Shown here: positions 32,462 through 40,266 of the stretch, piece by piece
Layout of the letters: each line of letters opens with the position of its first letter
How positions within the stretch are numbered: position 1 is the stretch's first letter
DNA from: Planctomycetota bacterium
GTDB taxonomy: Bacteria; Planctomycetota; SZUA-567; JAKLDR01
Assembly (NCBI GenBank): GCA_022703445.1
Contig: JAKLDR010000003.1
Coordinates: 36,407 to 100,406, forward strand
DNA: 64,000 nucleotides
Reading direction: 5' to 3'
The notes under the pieces: generated by a model
Databases searched by the model: none
Told to the model about the DNA's origin: nothing
Seen by the model: the letters and a program-made list of their open reading frames with translations, nothing else
Program-made: the position numbers and the translations under genes

Positions 32462-35400
32462 TTACTGCGCGCCCTTGCTGATGCTCTCGTAATACCTCTT
32501 CACCAGCTCCTCGTACCCCGCCGGCACGCCGCCTTCCATGGCGTCGTAGAGCTCGTCTCTGAGGCGCTTGGGGATCATCGCGGAGTTGTCCTGCCGGACC
32601 TGGCTCTCGGCCGCGGCGAAATCGCGGGTGGTCTTGAGGCCCTCGAGCATCACGTTGCGCTTCCGGGCGATGTTCTGGTAGCGGCCGTCCTTCATGTCCA
32701 CGGAGGTCTCGCGCATGAGGTTGATCACCCGGTCGAGGTCGGTGGTGGGCTGGTTCCGGACCTTGAGGTCCAGGGCCAGCCGCTCGGCGCGGGCGAGCAA
32801 CTGGGCCTGCTTGCCGGCGAGGCGCCCCACGTCCTTCTGGACCTCGGGGGGCGGGGGACCCTCCAGCCCCTCGCCGCCGCCGCCGCCGACCTTGCCGCCG
32901 CCGGTGGCGCCGCCGGCCGGGTCCTTGGACGTGTCCTTGATGTCGCCCTTGAGGAATGCGTCGGGCGTGAGCCTGGTCGGCGTGTTCCGGCCGCCCTTGC
33001 CGGTGGCGGTGTCCTCCACGAACTCGCCGGCGGCCTTCCCCGTGCGGCCCTCGCCGGAGCGGCCGTTGATCTCCGAGGAGTTGGGCAGGCGGTTGCCGGT
33101 CACGCCCTGGGCGGACATGTTGCTGATCGGCCCGTCCATGGCGTCCCAGCCGGCGCCCTTGTCGAGCGAGTCGGCCCAGGCCGAGGTGGCGTCCTCCATG
33201 TCCTCGAAGATGTCCTCCTGCTCCTCCATGAGGTCGCCGATCAGGTCCTCGAGTTCGTGGGGCAGCTCGGCCATGGGCGTCTGGTTCTCGCCCACCGGCT
33301 CCTCCATCTTCCACTGCTGGCGGTCGGGCGTGTCCGGCAGCCACTTCTCGATGTGGGTGGTGAGCGCCTCGGCCAGCTCCAGCCCGGCCTGCTCCAGCGG
33401 CACGGCGACCTCGGCCGTCTTCTGGGTGAGCGCGTCCTTGGCCATCTCCACTTCGCTGTAGGTCTCCACGAGCTCCTTGAGCAGCTGGGCGTCGGTGAAG
33501 TCCTGCTTCTGGAGCTTGGAGAGGTCCGAGGCCGCGTCCTTCATGAACTTGGCCCACTTGTCCTCAGTGGCGGCCAGGGCCTCCTGCTTCTTCTTGTCGG
33601 CCTCGGTCATGTCCTCGACCGGGGTCTTGGCCAGGTCGTGGGTGGCCTCGATGACCTTCTTCTGCTCGTCGATGAAGTTCTTGAGGAGCTCGTCCAGCCT
33701 GGCCAGGGCCTTCCTGGCGTCATCGGGCAGATCCGTGCCGGTCTTCAGATCCTCCTTGGTCGCCTGGGCCTCGAGCTTCTCGACCAGGGCCAGGAGCTCG
33801 CGCAGCGTCTTGATGACCAGGTCCTGGGCGCCGGTGAGCCTGGCCTGGGCGGCCGGCTCGCGCGCGGCCTTGGCCGAGCCGGCCAGCGCCGCGGCGGCCT
33901 TCTCGGCGTCGAGCTCCGGGCCGGCGGCCAGGAGCAGCACCGCGCCGCGGATCCTCCGGGCGGCCGCGTCCTCCTGCGGCGCGGCGTCGGCAGCCGAGAT
34001 GGTCTCCCGGCGGACGGCCTCCTGCGCCGCCCCCAGCGCGGCGCAGCCGGCGAGCAGCGCCTTGTCGTCGGCCGGGGGCCTGCCCAGCAGCGTCCCGGCC
34101 TCGGCCCGGGCGGCGGTCTGGCGCTCGAGGACCTTCTTGAGGCGCGCCAGGAACTCGGCCAGGTCCTTGAGGCGCTCGGCGCCGGCCTTCTTGGGATCGA
34201 CCAGCTTGACCTGGAAGGTCGGGCTCTGGCCGGTCTGGAGGCGATCGGAGGCCTCCAGGTGGTAGATGATGACGTCGCCGGGGTCGAAGTCCCGCGCGGA
34301 GAGCGTCCAGCTGCGCACGAGCTGGGCGGACTTCCGGTCCGGAAAGTCCTTCCACTCGGTCAGCGTCTGAAGCTCACCGCCGCGGTTGCGGCGGTAGCGC
34401 AGCGCCGCCGACTTCAGCCCGTAGTCGTCGGTGGCCACGGCGGCGACGGCCAGCGTCGCGCCGACCGGCAGCTCCACGTCGCGCCCCGGGGCGCTGACCC
34501 GCACGGCCGGGGGGGCGTCGGGCACGGCCACTATCGGGTAGCTCGGCGGGTTGAGGTTGCGCGTGCCGGCCTCATCGGTCACCGCGATGGAGTAGCTGCC
34601 GGACTTCTCCACCAGGAACCGGCCGGAGAGCCCCGCGCCGCCGGGGAGCGGTTCGAGCCGCACCGACTCGGCCCCGGCGATGTCCACGCGGCCGTCGACG
34701 ACCGGGTGGTTGGCGCGCACCGCGATGGTCACCTCGGTGCCGACCGGCACGCGGATCTCGCGGTTCCGGGTCCGGGGGAAGCTCACGGGCTCCAGTCCGG
34801 CATAGGCCGGGTAGCGGTAGGCCAGGTCCACCTCGCGGACTTCCGGCCGCTCGACGACCGTGAGGGTGTAGCGCCCGGTCTGGCTGTCGCCGACTTCGAT
34901 CCGATAGCGGACCTCGCGCTCCAGACGGCTGAAGGTGTAGGTGTAGGTCTCGCCGTCGGCCGACTCCATGCGCCGGACGAACTCCGGACCGCTCCGCTCG
35001 CGGTAGACGATCCGACCGTCCGGGGCGCGCCCTTCGCCGGCCGGCGCGATCCTCGCGGTGACGGTCACGTCCGAGCCGGCCACGACGGTGGCGTCCCCGG
35101 GCTCCACGCCCAGGATGCTGACGCTGCCCTTCTGGGGTATGAAGGTGCCGGGCATGGCCAGGCGCGCCAGGGCCGAACCCATCCGGGCGGGGGCCAGCGC
35201 GAAGACCAGGGCCAGCAGCAGGAGACTCGCCCCGGCGAACTGCACGAGGCGCGTCCGGCGCCGGCGGTCGACGATCACCGCCGGGTCCAGCGCCGCGGCC
35301 GACTCGGCGGCCAGCGCCACCGTCGCGGCCACCAGGTCCCCCCCGACCGGTCTGACCTGTCCGCCTTCTTCGTTGCCCAGCTGCAGTCCGGCGATGAGCA

Positions 35401-35716
35401 GGTTGCCGAGCTCCGGCTCGCTGGTCTCGGCCAGCCGGGCCACGCGCTCGAGCGGGATGCGCTCGAACATGGGCCGGCCGACGAGCCAGCCGATCCCGGC
35501 GGCCAGCGCGGCCAGCGCCAGGACGAGCAGCGCCCAGCGCACCCCGTCCGGGAAGTGGAAGAGGGCCTCGGCTCCGGCCAGGAGCAGGACCAGCGCGGCC
35601 AGCCCCGCCGCCAGCTGGAGCAGCCCGGCCAGCACCAGGCTGGTCCGCCAGCGGTCGCGCACGACCGCCAGGCGGTCGGCGAGGATCAGCCTGGAGCGCT
35701 GGGCTTCCGGGGACAT
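32462..35716 (-). CDS. DUF4175-like membrane-anchored Ig-fold and coiled-coil protein
   Basis: N-terminal TM helices; YRYPAYAGLEP, VPDAPPAVRV, ATDDYGL; acidic helical C-terminus ending VPAGYEELVKRYYESI; GGAGG before ATG 35716. Confidence 0.72.
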   Translation of the reverse strand: MSPEAQRSRLILADRLAVVRDRWRTSLVLAGLLQLAAGLAALVLLLAGAEALFHFPDGVRWALLVLALAALAAGIGWLVGRPMFERIPLERVARLAETSEPELGNLLIAGLQLGNEEGGQVRPVGGDLVAATVALAAESAAALDPAVIVDRRRRTRLVQFAGASLLLLALVFALAPARMGSALARLAMPGTFIPQKGSVSILGVEPGDATVVAGSDVTVTARIAPAGEGRAPDGRIVYRERSGPEFVRRMESADGETYTYTFSRLEREVRYRIEVGDSQTGRYTLTVVERPEVREVDLAYRYPAYAGLEPVSFPRTRNREIRVPVGTEVTIAVRANHPVVDGRVDIAGAESVRLEPLPGGAGLSGRFLVEKSGSYSIAVTDEAGTRNLNPPSYPIVAVPDAPPAVRVSAPGRDVELPVGATLAVAAVATDDYGLKSAALRYRRNRGGELQTLTEWKDFPDRKSAQLVRSWTLSARDFDPGDVIIYHLEASDRLQTGQSPTFQVKLVDPKKAGAERLKDLAEFLARLKKVLERQTAARAEAGTLLGRPPADDKALLAGCAALGAAQEAVRRETISAADAAPQEDAAARRIRGAVLLLAAGPELDAEKAAAALAGSAKAAREPAAQARLTGAQDLVIKTLRELLALVEKLEAQATKEDLKTGTDLPDDARKALARLDELLKNFIDEQKKVIEATHDLAKTPVEDMTEADKKKQEALAATEDKWAKFMKDAASDLSKLQKQDFTDAQLLKELVETYSEVEMAKDALTQKTAEVAVPLEQAGLELAEALTTHIEKWLPDTPDRQQWKMEEPVGENQTPMAELPHELEDLIGDLMEEQEDIFEDMEDATSAWADSLDKGAGWDAMDGPISNMSAQGVTGNRLPNSSEINGRSGEGRTGKAAGEFVEDTATGKGGRNTPTRLTPDAFLKGDIKDTSKDPAGGATGGGKVGGGGGEGLEGPPPPEVQKDVGRLAGKQAQLLARAERLALDLKVRNQPTTDLDRVINLMRETSVDMKDGRYQNIARKRNVMLEGLKTTRDFAAAESQVRQDNSAMIPKRLRDELYDAMEGGVPAGYEELVKRYYESISKGAQ

Positions 35717-35784
35717 CGACCCTCCGGCGATCAGTCCTCCACCCCGACAGCCGGCCCGATGGCCGCCTGCCCGAGCATACAACT

Positions 35785-35910: not shown

Positions 35911-36849
35911 CTAACCACCGCAGCCGCCGCAGCCCCCACCGCAACCGCCGCCTCCGCAGCCACCGCCACCGCCTCCGTCCCCACCCCCGCCGATGTCCAG
36001 CCCTCCCCAGCCACCCCCGCCGCAGCCGGAGCCGCAGCCTCCGGTCCAGCTGCCGCCGTCGCTGCCGGACTTGACCGCCTTGGGATAGGCCGTCTTCACA
36101 AACGGGAACTTGATGGCGGGCAGGGCGGCCAGTCCCCACAGGGCCGCCAGAAGCACAACCTCACTGCTGGCCCCTCCGGCGGCGAGATCCCGGGCCCGGG
36201 CCCTGAGCCCGCGGAAGGAGCGCCGCAGCTCGCTCAACAACCGGTCGCCCAGGGCCGTCCTTGGACGACGGGTCACCACGCGCACAGAGAAAATGGCTAT
36301 GCCGGCGAGGACCAGCAGGAAGATGACGTTGTGGTGCCCACGGGACACGGCCACGCAGATCTTGACGGCAGCCGTCCCCAGCAGGACGACCAGCGCGACG
36401 GTTATGGCGATGGCCCGCGCGCGCCGCCGGTCCGCTCCGGGGACGAGATCCAGCCGTTCCAGTTCCTCCTGGTACTGCTGGCATACGGCGCACACCGAGA
36501 GGGGAGGATGCTCGAAGATGGAACAGGCCGGGTTCCTCGTCTTGAAGTGCGTGAGGACGATCTTCTCCAGAGGACGCCGGACCATGGCCTCCGACCACTC
36601 TAGGGCCAGGACCTCCCCGTTGCTGGCCTTGAGCAGACCGCGGTCGATCAGCGACACGGTGGCCACCCGCAGGGCCTCGTCCCGTCCCCCGCGCAGATAG
36701 GCTATGGCATAGGGGTCGGTCAGGCGCGGCAGTTCCTGGTCTCCCGACTCGCTCCCCCAGAGCCAGAACCGCAGGGCGACCAGGACGGCGAATCCCAGGC
36801 CAACATAGAAGGCCAGAAATTCAGGCCCGGACAGGTCGAAGGGGTTCAT
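35911..36849 (-). CDS. TIGR04222-like membrane protein with Gly/Cys-rich C-terminal tail
   Basis: MNPFDLSGPEFLAFY start; DPYAIAYLRGG; TM helices; tail GGCGSGCGGG...GCGGGGCGGGCGGCGG. Confidence 0.85.
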   Translation of the reverse strand: MNPFDLSGPEFLAFYVGLGFAVLVALRFWLWGSESGDQELPRLTDPYAIAYLRGGRDEALRVATVSLIDRGLLKASNGEVLALEWSEAMVRRPLEKIVLTHFKTRNPACSIFEHPPLSVCAVCQQYQEELERLDLVPGADRRRARAIAITVALVVLLGTAAVKICVAVSRGHHNVIFLLVLAGIAIFSVRVVTRRPRTALGDRLLSELRRSFRGLRARARDLAAGGASSEVVLLAALWGLAALPAIKFPFVKTAYPKAVKSGSDGGSWTGGCGSGCGGGGWGGLDIGGGGDGGGGGGCGGGGCGGGCGGCGG

Positions 36850-37598
36850 CGCAGGTTCTCCCGCGCGAGGAATTCCTCCGCGCGGGCCTGGAGCGCTTCG
36901 GCCAGTTCCATCAGACGGAAGACCAGGCGGGGCCCCGCGCCGGGAGGAAGGCTCTCCCGTTCCCGCGCCTCGGAGATGCCGGCGAGCGCCTCGTCCCAGG
37001 GGCCGCCGGGCAGCCCGGAAGCCAGACGCCGGAGCGACTCACGGGGGGACGCGGCCGGACGACCCTCCAGGCAGCACAGGGCCGCGGCTCCGGAGCGCAG
37101 AGGACCGGCCACTCCGGCCACCACGGCGGCCAGCTGCTCCTCGCGCGCGCCGGCCAGAGCGTAACTGGCGCGCAGCCTCAGGCGCAGGTTGAGAAGCACC
37201 TGCCGGGCGTGGCGGGCCAGCAGGGCCGGGGGAATGCACCGGCCCTCGAACGGATCGCGGCCGAAGATCACCTGCCGGCGGACCAGCACGTCAGCGAACT
37301 TGACCGGGAAGGCCTCCATGGCCGCGGGGACCTCGGCCTCCAGCAGGAACATGATCTCCAGGCGCACAGCGGCATGGGCCAGGCTGCAGGCCTCGCGCAG
37401 GCCGTCGGCCAGCGTCCTATCGAAGCGCTTGAGCACCAGGATGAGGTTCACATCCGAGGCCGGCCGTATCCGGCCCTCGGCCGCCGAGCCGTACAACACG
37501 GCGGCGAGCAGATCCCCGCCGAGCGCGGCCCGGGCCGCGCCGAGAAACTCGTCGAGATGCTTCCGGACCATTTCCGTCATCGAACCGTCCCGACTCAT
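36846..37598 (-). CDS. Nucleotidyltransferase-domain protein (pol-beta-like)
   Basis: AVLYGSAAEGRIRPASDVNLILVL; helical C-terminal part. Confidence 0.75.
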   Translation of the reverse strand: MSRDGSMTEMVRKHLDEFLGAARAALGGDLLAAVLYGSAAEGRIRPASDVNLILVLKRFDRTLADGLREACSLAHAAVRLEIMFLLEAEVPAAMEAFPVKFADVLVRRQVIFGRDPFEGRCIPPALLARHARQVLLNLRLRLRASYALAGAREEQLAAVVAGVAGPLRSGAAALCCLEGRPAASPRESLRRLASGLPGGPWDEALAGISEARERESLPPGAGPRLVFRLMELAEALQARAEEFLARENLR

Positions 37599-37620
37599 GG
37601 CTTCCTCCCTACGACGGCCA

Positions 37621-38739
37621 TCACGCCCCAGCCCCGCTGCGAATCAGCGCCGCAACCTCCGAGTCGAATCCGCCCTGCGGATCATCCGCCGCATCCTGCC
37701 GGCGGGCCAGCCAGCATCCCGGATCGGCGCGGAAGGCGTCGCCGCCGGCCGCCAGGGCCAGGCATCGCGCGCCGCCGCGGCATTCCAGCGAGTGGAAGCA
37801 GCGCTCACATCCGGCCGGCACTCGCCGGCGGTCGCGGAGCTCCCTGAGAATCGGAGACTCGAAGTACAGGTCGCGCAACGATGCATGCCGGACGTCACCA
37901 ACCGGGAGCGGCAGGCGGCGGCAGGGCAGAACTGCTCCGTCGGGCAAAAGGGCCAGCAGGGACTCGCCGGCAACGCAGCGGTACGGGAGGCCGCCGGCGA
38001 CCAGGAACTGCAGCGCCCGGCCCATGGCGATCTCGGTGCGGCCGGCCGGCCGGCAGCGGCGCTCCCGCAGCATCAGCCGGAAGAACCCCTCGGCCTCCTC
38101 CGGCCCGAGGGTCGCACCCGAGAGGTCCGCGCCGCGACCGCAGGGCACCAGGCGATCGGCCCAGACCCGCCGGACGCCGAGCCGCCGTCCGAGGCCGGCC
38201 ACGTCCGGGAACTCCCGCCAGTTGCCACGGTGCGCGGTGAAGGCGATCACCGCGTGGATCCCGGCGGCCACCAGGTGACGCAGGCCGGCGGTGGCCGCCG
38301 CGTGACTGCCGCGCCCGCGGATGCGGTCGTGGGTCTCCTCTCCGCCCTCGACGCTCACCTGGACGAACGCCGGGCGGAGTTCCGCCAGGCGCCGGGCCAG
38401 GCCTCCGTCGATGAGCGTGCCGTTGGTCAGGATGGCGAAGGAACGGCGCGGAGAGGAGCCGGCCAGGAGCTCAAGCAGCCCCCACAGGTCGGGCCGCAGG
38501 AAGGGCTCGCCGCCGGTCAGGGTTATGTGGCCGCGCGCCGGGCGTCCGCCGAGGCGGCCCATCTCCGCCAGCAGCAACTCGAACTGGGCGAGGACTCCGG
38601 GCAGTTCCCCGAAGGGCATCTCCGTGCCGTCCGCGTCGTCCTGATAGCAGTGGGCGCAGCTCAGGTTGCAGCGATCAGTTAGGTGCCACTGAAGGAGAAG
38701 GCGGCCGACCGCCGGCTGGGCATGTTCCGGAAGCGGCAT
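37621..38739 (-). CDS. Radical SAM/SPASM domain protein
   Basis: CNLSCAHC, LTGGEPFL, ILTNG; C-terminal C...DGAVLPC...CERC...CRGGARC...DPGC; GGAGGG before ATG 38739. Confidence 0.9.
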   Translation of the reverse strand: MPLPEHAQPAVGRLLLQWHLTDRCNLSCAHCYQDDADGTEMPFGELPGVLAQFELLLAEMGRLGGRPARGHITLTGGEPFLRPDLWGLLELLAGSSPRRSFAILTNGTLIDGGLARRLAELRPAFVQVSVEGGEETHDRIRGRGSHAAATAGLRHLVAAGIHAVIAFTAHRGNWREFPDVAGLGRRLGVRRVWADRLVPCGRGADLSGATLGPEEAEGFFRLMLRERRCRPAGRTEIAMGRALQFLVAGGLPYRCVAGESLLALLPDGAVLPCRRLPLPVGDVRHASLRDLYFESPILRELRDRRRVPAGCERCFHSLECRGGARCLALAAGGDAFRADPGCWLARRQDAADDPQGGFDSEVAALIRSGAGA

Positions 38740-38915: not shown

Positions 38916-40082
38916 CTAAGATCCGCCGCCGGACGAAGCCGGCGTTCGGTCGTCGGCCGGGCCCGGCCGGCCCATCTCCCGCAGCCAGCGGTAGTGCGCG
39001 GCCACCCCCGCCCAGAACGAGCGGTGCTCACGGTACTTCACCCCGAAGTCCCGGCAGGTCTCCTCGACCACCTTGGACAGGGCCGGATAGTTGATGTGGC
39101 AGACTATCGGCAGCAGGTGGTGCTCGCAGTGATAGTTGAGTCCGCCCAGGGCCCAGGTGGCCACCGGGTTGCGCTTGGAGAAGTCCAGGGCCACCCGGGC
39201 CTGATGGACCGCCCAGGGCGTTTCGATGCGGCCGTCCCGCGGCAGCGGGAACTCCGACTCGGCCACGCAGTGCGGCAGCTGGAAGACGACGCTGAGCAGG
39301 ATGCCCAGGACCAGCACCACCACCCCATAGTAGAAGGCCACGACCCAGACGGGATGGAAGAGCAGCGGCATCCCGAAGGCCAGCGCCAGGAAGACCGCCT
39401 TGCCCCCCAGGAAGAGGGCCAGGTCCAGCCCCTTGGGCCGGGGGAAGCGGTGCGGGCCGAGCTGGCCGCTGAAGATGATCTTGAAGTCTGTGACCAACTG
39501 CAGTTTGACGGCCAGCAGGCCGTAGAGCGGCCAGAGGTAGAGATGCTGCCAGCGGTGGAACCACAGCCGCCGCTTGTGCGGGCTCAGCCGGCCGATCCCG
39601 CCCAGGTCGATGTCGGTGTCGTAGCCGGTGATATTGACGTAGCGGTGGTGGATGACGACGTGCTTGCGATGCCAGACATAGGAGCTGGCCCCGATCAGGT
39701 CCATGGTCATGGCCGCTAACTTGTTGACCCATGGGTGCGCCGAATAGGCCTTGTGGCCGCCGTCGTGCTGGATGTTGAAGCCGATGCCCGCCGTGCAGAT
39801 CCCCAGGGCAACGGCCAGCGACAGTCCCTGCCAAAGGGTCGAGGCCGCAAACACCAGGAGGACGTAGGAGGCCGCGAACGCGACGAGGATGACCGCTGAC
39901 TTGAGGTACATCTGCCAGCAGTCGCGCGGCCGCCGCCCGGTGGTGCGGAAGTACTCGTCGACCCGGCGGCGCAGCTCGAGTTCGAAGGCGTTGTCACCGG
40001 CGAATTCCAGGCGGACCGGCTCCGCCCCGGCTGGCTCGGGCCGGCGGGGAGGGCCTTCGCCCAGCATCTGTTCGTCCGACAT
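38916..40082 (-). CDS. Membrane fatty acid (acyl-lipid/acyl-CoA) desaturase
   Basis: Three histidine boxes QHDGGH, HVVIHH, HCEHH; TM segments. Confidence 0.9.
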   Translation of the reverse strand: MSDEQMLGEGPPRRPEPAGAEPVRLEFAGDNAFELELRRRVDEYFRTTGRRPRDCWQMYLKSAVILVAFAASYVLLVFAASTLWQGLSLAVALGICTAGIGFNIQHDGGHKAYSAHPWVNKLAAMTMDLIGASSYVWHRKHVVIHHRYVNITGYDTDIDLGGIGRLSPHKRRLWFHRWQHLYLWPLYGLLAVKLQLVTDFKIIFSGQLGPHRFPRPKGLDLALFLGGKAVFLALAFGMPLLFHPVWVVAFYYGVVVLVLGILLSVVFQLPHCVAESEFPLPRDGRIETPWAVHQARVALDFSKRNPVATWALGGLNYHCEHHLLPIVCHINYPALSKVVEETCRDFGVKYREHRSFWAGVAAHYRWLREMGRPGPADDRTPASSGGGS

Positions 40083-40266
40083 GATGGTTCCCGGCAACGG
40101 TTCCAACACCCGCTCCCCAGACGGTGTCGCTCTGTCATTCCTGGTCCCCGCCAACGACCAAGGCCGGGGGCCGAGACTAGTAACGCGTTCGAGGGCAATA
40201 CTCATCCCGAGTTCGTCGCCCCAACCGCACGCTGCGACCGGCCCGGACGCCGGCGCAGTAGAGCGG

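Follow-up and report, generated by a model that had tools for sequence, protein, structure and literature searches.

The 64,000-nucleotide stretch of Planctomycetota DNA analysed here (contig JAKLDR010000003.1; hereafter, the window) contains three co-oriented genes on its minus strand that encode, in this order, a radical S-adenosylmethionine (SAM) enzyme with a SPASM domain (37621..38739; 372 aa), a protein of nucleotidyltransferase (NTase) fold (36846..37598; 250 aa) and a membrane protein of the TIGR04222 family (35911..36849; 312 aa) with a Gly/Cys-rich C-terminal tail. The radical SAM gene starts with an ATG at position 38739, preceded at 7 nt by a GGAGGG box, and is separated by a 22-bp gap from the NTase-like gene, which in turn overlaps the TIGR04222 gene by ATGA. 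The coordinates of the open reading frames (ORFs) bear out the tight arrangement given in a preliminary description of this DNA, as well as its remark that a separate small precursor gene is missing: the three-gene block contains no small precursor ORF. No precursor-processing protease or exporter was found in the cassette, and a scan for promoters and terminators returned nothing exceeding shuffled sequences. The parts are of known kinds, since radical SAM/SPASM enzymes include peptide maturases and TIGR04222 proteins are candidate substrates of MNIO enzymes. Here we propose that the radical SAM enzyme acts as maturase of the tail carried by the TIGR04222 protein.

The first protein matches the Pfam models for Radical_SAM (PF04055; 77.8 bits against a threshold of 29.5) and SPASM (PF13186; 29.5 bits against 21.5), and harbors the two sets of cysteines noted in the preliminary description. 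The CX3CX2C motif (38647..38670, minus strand; Cys24, Cys28 and Cys31), predicted to bind the SAM-cleaving [4Fe-4S] cluster, occupies invariant columns in the homologue alignment. The SPASM region (37714..37977, minus strand) contributes seven cysteines (255, 273, 311, 314, 320, 326 and 342), predicted to hold two auxiliary [4Fe-4S] clusters; six of the seven are invariant across 26 homologues and Cys326 is at least 90% conserved. Motif and PF04055 score place the protein in the radical SAM superfamily, and the seven cysteines and PF13186 score in the SPASM subfamily. Only 23 residues precede the CX3CX2C motif, and the enzyme hence lacks the N-terminal RRE domain, the recognition element of maturases for RiPPs, peptides made on the ribosome and modified after translation.

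Assignment to a curated enzyme type was less specific. The protein reaches no NCBIfam equivalog: the best matches, NirJ, AhbD, ACGX and SbtM, score about 115-118 bits against cut-offs of 350-515, and with further models included the scores are about 100-118 bits against cut-offs of 350-650. The SbtM model (TIGR04082; 115 bits against 350) aligns over positions 200-515 of its 516; the window enzyme lacks the SbtM-type N-terminal extension and is partnered by a membrane protein rather than by a short peptide containing selenocysteine or cysteine, and it falls outside that family. It likewise falls outside the sactipeptide and ranthipeptide maturases AlbA, SkfB, StsB, PapB and CteB (48-92 bits against cut-offs of 300-850). 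Among proteins of solved structure, SkfB, PqqE, CteB and anSME come nearest, and together with the flat NCBIfam scores this means that sequence selects no chemistry for the enzyme. Homology searches recovered 1428 relatives at E ≤ 1e-20, the best of them 50-67% identical.

The third protein belongs to TIGR04222 (101.1 bits against a cut-off of 43; residues 15-244 aligned to model positions 5-229) and is encoded by a single-copy gene in the host genome. Its tail (35914..36060, minus strand; residues 264-312), the proposed substrate, ends in CGGGGCGGGCGGCGG and contains, as had been reported, six cysteines within Gly runs over about 50 aa; these lie at positions 272, 276, 298, 303, 307 and 310, each directly preceded by Gly, and the whole tail is predicted to be disordered, with a predicted local distance difference test score (pLDDT) below 50 in the AlphaFold2 (AF2) model. 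A regular-expression search for Cys/Gly C-termini hit five places in the 5.99-Mb host genome, among which only that of the window is a real long tail, placing it beyond chance occurrence.

The AF2 model of this protein (pLDDT 84) contains transmembrane (TM) helices at residues 8-34, 139-170 and 176-193, with a winged-helix-like unit (46-82) inside a 105-residue domain between TM1 and TM2. TM3 is followed by Arg-rich helices and, from residue 264, by disorder. A fourth hydrophobic stretch (H4) is modelled as a 10-residue helix (229-238) and a Pro-containing coil rather than as a canonical TM helix. A Foldseek search of the model against the PDB yielded no fold match (best E = 1.7), and a TIGR04222 profile search of PDB sequences returned Gly linkers only. 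Charge counts on 47 homologues assign a cytoplasmic location to the large domain and to the TM3-H4 loop, which holds 6-11 Lys/Arg, and the hydrophobicity of H4 is borderline (1.2-2.2 on the Kyte-Doolittle scale). On these grounds the tail may well remain in the cytoplasm, a location that would suit cytoplasmic radical SAM and NTase-like proteins. The cytoplasmic placement made in the preliminary description is therefore plausible from the model and the charge counts, but it conflicts with the periplasmic tail predicted for other TIGR04222 proteins (PMC12452194).

The second protein is modelled with high confidence (pLDDT 94) in the two-domain ANT/KNT architecture, its best Foldseek matches being AadA, ANT(9) and ANT(4') at TM-scores of about 0.6 and 11-17% identity. 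It scores 19.1 bits with Pfam Polbeta (PF18765), below the 26.9 cut-off, and at best 27 bits with the NCBIfam models for ANT aminoglycoside nucleotidyltransferases (cut-offs 193-595), and thus lies outside the latter families. The nucleotide-binding motif region (37446..37490, minus strand) reads G37-S38 ... S48-D49-V50-N51, with D-x-N where the fold normally has D-x-D/E. The SDVN sequence had been described as a replacement of DxD; it is indeed present, but as a hallmark of the family rather than a local substitution, since N51 is at least 90% conserved across members linked to either TIGR04222 or TPM-domain proteins, with D49 replaced by Asn in a few. The family keeps the G-S motif, shows no conservation of the third carboxylate strand and has its conserved residues at other places, in FPVKF/DVFP and CEQE..N motifs.

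The association of this radical SAM clade with Gly/Cys tails was assessed by comparative genomics. A pattern scan limited to one genome per species identified at least 585 loci with relatives of the enzyme, and 80 of these with flanks were analysed together with that of the window (81 in total). Neighboring families were detected with hidden Markov models (HMMs) iterated from the window proteins, plain blastp clustering being too insensitive for the divergent TIGR04222 and NTase-like sequences. A TIGR04222 homologue directly adjoins the radical SAM gene in 57 of the 81 loci, and in eight more the neighboring ORF has a (Cys-Gly2-4)n C-terminus and is either cut by a contig end, frameshifted or a small membrane carrier of another kind, so that a Gly/Cys-tail ORF lies next to the radical SAM gene in 65 loci overall. 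About a dozen phyla are represented in the locus set, including Thermodesulfobacteriota, Nitrospinota, Nitrospirota, Planctomycetota, Verrucomicrobiota, Chloroflexota, Bacillota, Myxococcota, Armatimonadota and Hydrogenedentota, as well as Thiotrichaceae, large sulfur bacteria and archaea. Among the remaining loci, four end within 200 bp upstream of the radical SAM gene. The tails are uniform across loci, with the same terminal sequence as in the window; in 51 of them the composition is 58% Gly, 17% Cys and 13% Ser, Gly precedes Cys in 277 of 283 cases (98%) and consecutive cysteines are mostly spaced by 2-4 residues.

The commoner gene order is TIGR04222-radical SAM, with or without a following NTase-like gene. 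The order found in the window (radical SAM-NTase-TIGR04222) is essentially restricted to one radical SAM clade that spans five phyla, indicating horizontal transfer. In the closest relative, the radical SAM and NTase-like proteins are 67% and 72% identical to those of the window and the trio is kept, with unrelated flanking genes.

The carrier of the Gly/Cys stretch is not always a TIGR04222 protein. Three loci without TIGR04222 encode, upstream of the radical SAM gene, short leader-type precursors (L062:6551-6802; L069:6655-6924; L078:5908-6934) in which a YVEPxVLATYxKEELEEAIxPHGP leader precedes a GGCGCG-type core; L078 has four such copies in tandem. These peptides match no NCBIfam model, and HprK-related-kinase-like, S26-peptidase-like and PqqD-like genes lie downstream. 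In a further locus (L077), the same Gly/Cys tail is borne by a 100-aa membrane protein. The Gly/Cys stretch is thus the constant partner of the radical SAM clade while its carrier varies, which is the strongest argument for the tail as substrate. The preliminary description had named a neighborhood analysis as one test of its proposal that the tail is modified by the adjacent SPASM enzyme. Close and distant homologues alike proved to be linked to Gly/Cys-tail proteins, and the proposal emerges strongly supported by the 65 linked loci and the leader-peptide variant.

Several loci depart from these patterns. One (L039:8047-9843) has two tandem TIGR04222 paralogues with short Gly/Cys tails downstream of a single radical SAM gene, and no NTase gene. 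An apparent TIGR04222-radical SAM fusion (L064:5417-9250) was rejected as a frameshift or assembly artefact in which the tail, read in the wrong frame (AAGGAEAEAVEVAGAG), runs into the radical SAM sequence. In the Beggiatoaceae, three loci (L056, L063 and L067) carry clade members without a Gly/Cys-tail ORF nearby, and in the latter two the radical SAM gene is preceded by that of a Cys-free membrane protein of 71-77 aa whose tail is acidic.

TIGR04222 tails have already been proposed as substrates of an unrelated maturase, the MNIO enzymes (DUF692/PF05114), yet one third of TIGR04222-bearing genomes lack an MNIO; the MNIOs found beside TIGR04222 genes are close to those of bufferins (Microb Genom 2025, PMC12452194). 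The text of that article and its available supplements contain no mention of radical SAM partners. We analysed 251 genomes of the phylum to which the window belongs, 15 of which encode a TIGR04222 protein above cut-off. In eight of these 15, the TIGR04222 gene has an MNIO gene as its immediate neighbor. Three others encode a radical SAM ortholog (E ≤ 1e-149), adjacent in two and on fragmented contigs in the third, and these three, the window's genome among them, have no MNIO anywhere; the latter genome is 81% complete and yields no PF05114 match, which sets the window apart from the MNIO-TIGR04222 clusters. In yet another genome (G178; L095, G178:C10:117500-122500), an NTase-TIGR04222 pair is followed by a divergent radical SAM/SPASM gene scoring 143 bits with the clade HMM, which suggests that a second radical SAM lineage has been recruited to the same tail.

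The MNIO-linked tails have the same appearance (...CGGGGCGGCGS), and four of the eight MNIO-type loci also possess the NTase-like gene in upstream position. On a tree of the TIGR04222 domain inferred with the tails removed, radical SAM-linked and MNIO-linked members are interleaved, and the window protein groups with five MNIO-linked members (SH-aLRT 97). MNIO is absent in 40 of 48 other radical SAM-type genomes. The hosts of radical SAM-type loci are mostly anaerobes or microaerophiles, in agreement with the radical SAM enzyme being an O2-independent counterpart of MNIO. The simplest reading of these distributions is that two unrelated maturases may have been swapped repeatedly on a single substrate family.

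Together, these results lead us to favor, at a probability of roughly 0.6, an explanation in which the three genes would form a compact, horizontally mobile cassette whose radical SAM enzyme modifies the tail cysteines, doing the job of MNIO by non-orthologous displacement. The targets of the RRE-less enzyme would be the cysteines that punctuate the Gly-Cys repeats in the disordered TIGR04222 tail, and it would replace independently of O2 the O2-dependent MNIO of sister loci. Modification would be a cytoplasmic event, with the TIGR04222 winged-helix domain perhaps serving as a built-in docking element. Each Gly-Cys unit would be oxidised to a 5-thiooxazole, leaving a membrane-anchored, metal-chelating and probably copper-chelating tail, and the NTase-like accessory would work with the tail-bearing membrane protein. 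The core of this proposal, that the radical SAM enzyme modifies tail cysteines, appears likely from the comparative genomics. Its chemistry is a more tentative matter: even granting the modification, we would place 5-thiooxazole formation somewhat below even odds, although by analogy with SbtM it is favored over Cys-Gly thioethers. SbtM, itself a radical SAM/SPASM enzyme, makes thio(seleno)oxazole from Gly-Cys or Gly-selenocysteine by abstracting the Cys beta-hydrogens (PMC9204691), a reaction that fits the near-absolute Gly-Cys rule in the tails, and bufferin MNIOs convert Cys to copper-chelating 5-thiooxazoles (PMC11626156). Gene clustering of the kind seen in RiPP pathways is present, but with no protease in the cassette RiPP-like protein modification is a safer term than RiPP.

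Several observations weigh against this explanation. The radical SAM enzyme is no nearer to SbtM than to NirJ, AhbD, PqqE or the sactipeptide maturases, all within about 100-118 bits. No tail ORF lies near the radical SAM gene in about 12 of the 81 loci, several of them from Beggiatoaceae. The fourth hydrophobic stretch of the TIGR04222 protein, if it spans the membrane, puts the tail in the periplasm, as published for other members, and tail modification would then have to precede translocation. Furthermore, the host genome encodes an O2-dependent fatty-acid desaturase next to the cassette, and the host is therefore not a strict anaerobe.

The same enzyme and tail could also be read as a thioether-forming pair, in which sactionine-type bonds (Cys S-gamma to Gly C-alpha) would pin the tail together as a compact ladder of the kind known from sactipeptides or CrpC/CrpA. 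Thioether-forming SkfB and CteB are among the nearest solved relatives, the NCBIfam matches include the StsB, AlbA, PapB and SkfB maturases, thioether formation on a Cys-rich protein by a SPASM enzyme is known (PMC13692751) and the regular spacing of cysteines by 2-4 Gly would permit a ladder. Gly, however, has neither a beta nor a gamma carbon, so that ranthionines are impossible at most positions of tails of this composition and only C-alpha links are left. The enzyme also has no N-terminal RRE, a domain typically found in maturases of sacti- and ranthipeptides, and its interchange with bufferin-like MNIOs, which make thiooxazoles and from which thioethers are not known, argues for a shared product (PMC12452194). 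We accordingly regard a thioether ladder as unlikely, if still the most serious competitor. Of the Cys thioether cross-links mentioned in the preliminary description, those of ranthionine type to Gly are excluded; thioethers as such are possible, and a thiooxazole fits at least as well.

It is considerably less probable that the tail is no substrate at all and that the TIGR04222 protein serves as anchor, metal or Fe-S donor, or regulator for a radical SAM enzyme acting on an unseen molecule. Cys-rich tails can hold metals or clusters unmodified, and the lack of a protease or exporter in the cassette of the window is in keeping with such a role, but this leaves unexplained both the Gly/Cys-core leader peptides with PqqD and peptidase genes at clade members without TIGR04222 and the presence of an unrelated peptide-modifying MNIO in the same slot beside the same tails. 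A fortuitous adjacency or local operon accident, with no functional link, has in its favor only the general caution that the gene order of one genome proves nothing. We consider it refuted by the linkage in 65 of the 81 loci, which come from about a dozen phyla, against a genome-wide background of one such tail per 6 Mb, and the nearest relative keeps the trio among different flanking genes.

The preferred displacement of MNIO by a radical SAM enzyme leaves the NTase-like protein as an accessory, and its distribution indicates with what it is associated. The gene is present in 33 of the 81 radical SAM loci and absent from 48, and the family occurs in 45 of the 251 genomes of the phylum sample. 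We retrieved 16 NTase-like loci at which no nearby TIGR04222 match had appeared, and in 14 of them (L100-L113) the NTase-like gene lies just upstream of a gene for a membrane protein with a TPM domain (PF04536), and LemA (PF04011) usually comes next; the arrangement resembles a conserved NTase-TPM-LemA operon. Where the TPM-domain sequence is complete, it mostly has a TM helix, a basic stretch and then a Gly-rich tail (...GGFGGGGSFGGGGASGSW), and the Gly-rich end of most NTase-linked TPM proteins reads ...GGGGASGSW. A literature search on a link between TPM, LemA and NTase proteins returned nothing relevant. Since the family is found in a minority of radical SAM loci, occurs also in MNIO-type loci and is mostly linked to TPM/LemA within the phylum, it is not specific to one maturase, and we infer that it is an accessory of Gly-rich-tail membrane carriers rather than of a particular maturase. 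The preliminary description had the NTase add or sense a second modification; a role as dedicated second modifier of this system does not hold up against this distribution. The possibility of a decayed pseudo-enzyme specific to this cassette was rejected, given that members from different contexts share the conserved D-x-N and that the family extends beyond the cassette.

A catalytic function on the tail, such as nucleotidylation of Ser, Cys or the C-terminus, is improbable on balance. The two-domain ANT/KNT fold is predicted at high confidence, the G-S motif and one Asp are retained, the DVFP motif includes a conserved acidic residue, and the gene is always directly upstream of, or translationally coupled to, that of a Gly-rich-tail membrane protein. 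Conversely, essentially all members have D-x-N in place of the D-x-D/E pair, several of them with Asn even at the first Asp, conservation is lacking in the usual third carboxylate strand and the protein is missing from over half of the radical SAM loci. Most family members, moreover, accompany Cys-free TPM tails, and any NTase activity therefore cannot be Cys-specific.

Among known systems, the closest is that of MNIO and TIGR04222 (PMC12452194), with which the cassette shares the substrate family, a Cys-containing Gly/Ser-rich tail, a maturase gene directly beside the TIGR04222 gene and, in several MNIO loci, the same NTase-like gene upstream. It differs in its enzyme, which as a radical SAM/SPASM protein has no relationship to MNIO and no need of O2, and in that the tail is predicted there to be periplasmic, whereas the model obtained here leaves a cytoplasmic tail possible. 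SbtM (TIGR04082; PMC9204691; Lewis et al. 2021) is, like the window enzyme by prediction, a three-cluster radical SAM/SPASM protein acting on a substrate with Gly before Cys, and its product is identical to that of bufferin-type MNIOs, the family that the window enzyme would replace. It has, however, an N-terminal extension of about 200 aa and a short selenocysteine peptide, in contrast with the tail of a 312-aa membrane protein as the candidate substrate here, and the taxonomic range of the window enzyme is far wider.

The bufferin systems (BufA, BufB and BufC; PMC11626156) similarly involve Cys-rich substrates modified before or during their passage to the envelope, and by analogy with them metal binding would be the most likely function of the window system. 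The bufferin products are small peptides exported through Sec and made by an MNIO with a DUF2063 partner, whereas the window system has no signal peptide, MNIO or DUF2063 protein and its product would be membrane-tethered. CrpC, which installs ranthionine cross-links on the Cys-rich protein CrpA (PMC13692751, 2026), is an earlier case in which a SPASM radical SAM enzyme takes as substrate a full-size protein encoded alongside. CrpC has an RRE and N-terminal domains, and CrpA is soluble, Cys-rich and has ordinary side chains, unlike a Gly/Cys tail that is unable to form ranthionines at Gly. The NTase-like protein, finally, is predicted to share the Pol-beta NTase domain and helical bundle of AadA, ANT(9) and ANT(4') (PDB 6fzb, 7uy4, 6xz0 and 1kny), but at 11-17% identity, with about 27 bits against NCBIfam cut-offs of 340-595, with D-x-N in place of D-x-D/E and in the context of Gly-rich-tail membrane proteins rather than resistance cassettes.

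In the window, the cassette is flanked on one side by a gene for a 1106-aa protein without Pfam match (32462-35782, minus strand) and, directly upstream, by that of the O2-dependent membrane fatty-acid desaturase (38916-40205, minus strand; PF00487). Neither gene is kept beside the cassette in relatives.

Neither a paper nor a curated model for the pairing of radical SAM enzymes with TIGR04222 was found in the literature or NCBIfam, and the same holds for the leader-peptide variant and for the link between the NTase-like family and Gly-rich tails. A more speculative generalization, which we hold to be doubtful though worth stating, is that Gly-Cys repeats on TIGR04222 tails and leader peptides give rise to poly-thiooxazole metal-binding arrays through interchangeable radical SAM and MNIO enzymes, with the D-x-N NTase family as a general handler of Gly-rich cytoplasmic tails. 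The two maturases would then form an anaerobic/aerobic pair like anSME and FGE, and the O2-independent pathway would extend to at least 585 species.

There are thousands of TIGR04222 proteins, and the proposal that they are protein-sized MNIO substrates is recent. Part of the unexplained third of TIGR04222-bearing genomes without MNIO is answered by a dedicated radical SAM/SPASM clade that has at least 585 relatives and lacks a curated model. If the proposed modification is true, RiPP-type chemistry would reach as far as membrane-anchored proteins of anaerobes, radical SAM and MNIO enzymes acting on the same tail would constitute a natural enzyme swap, and the system may reveal a membrane-tethered metal-binding device.

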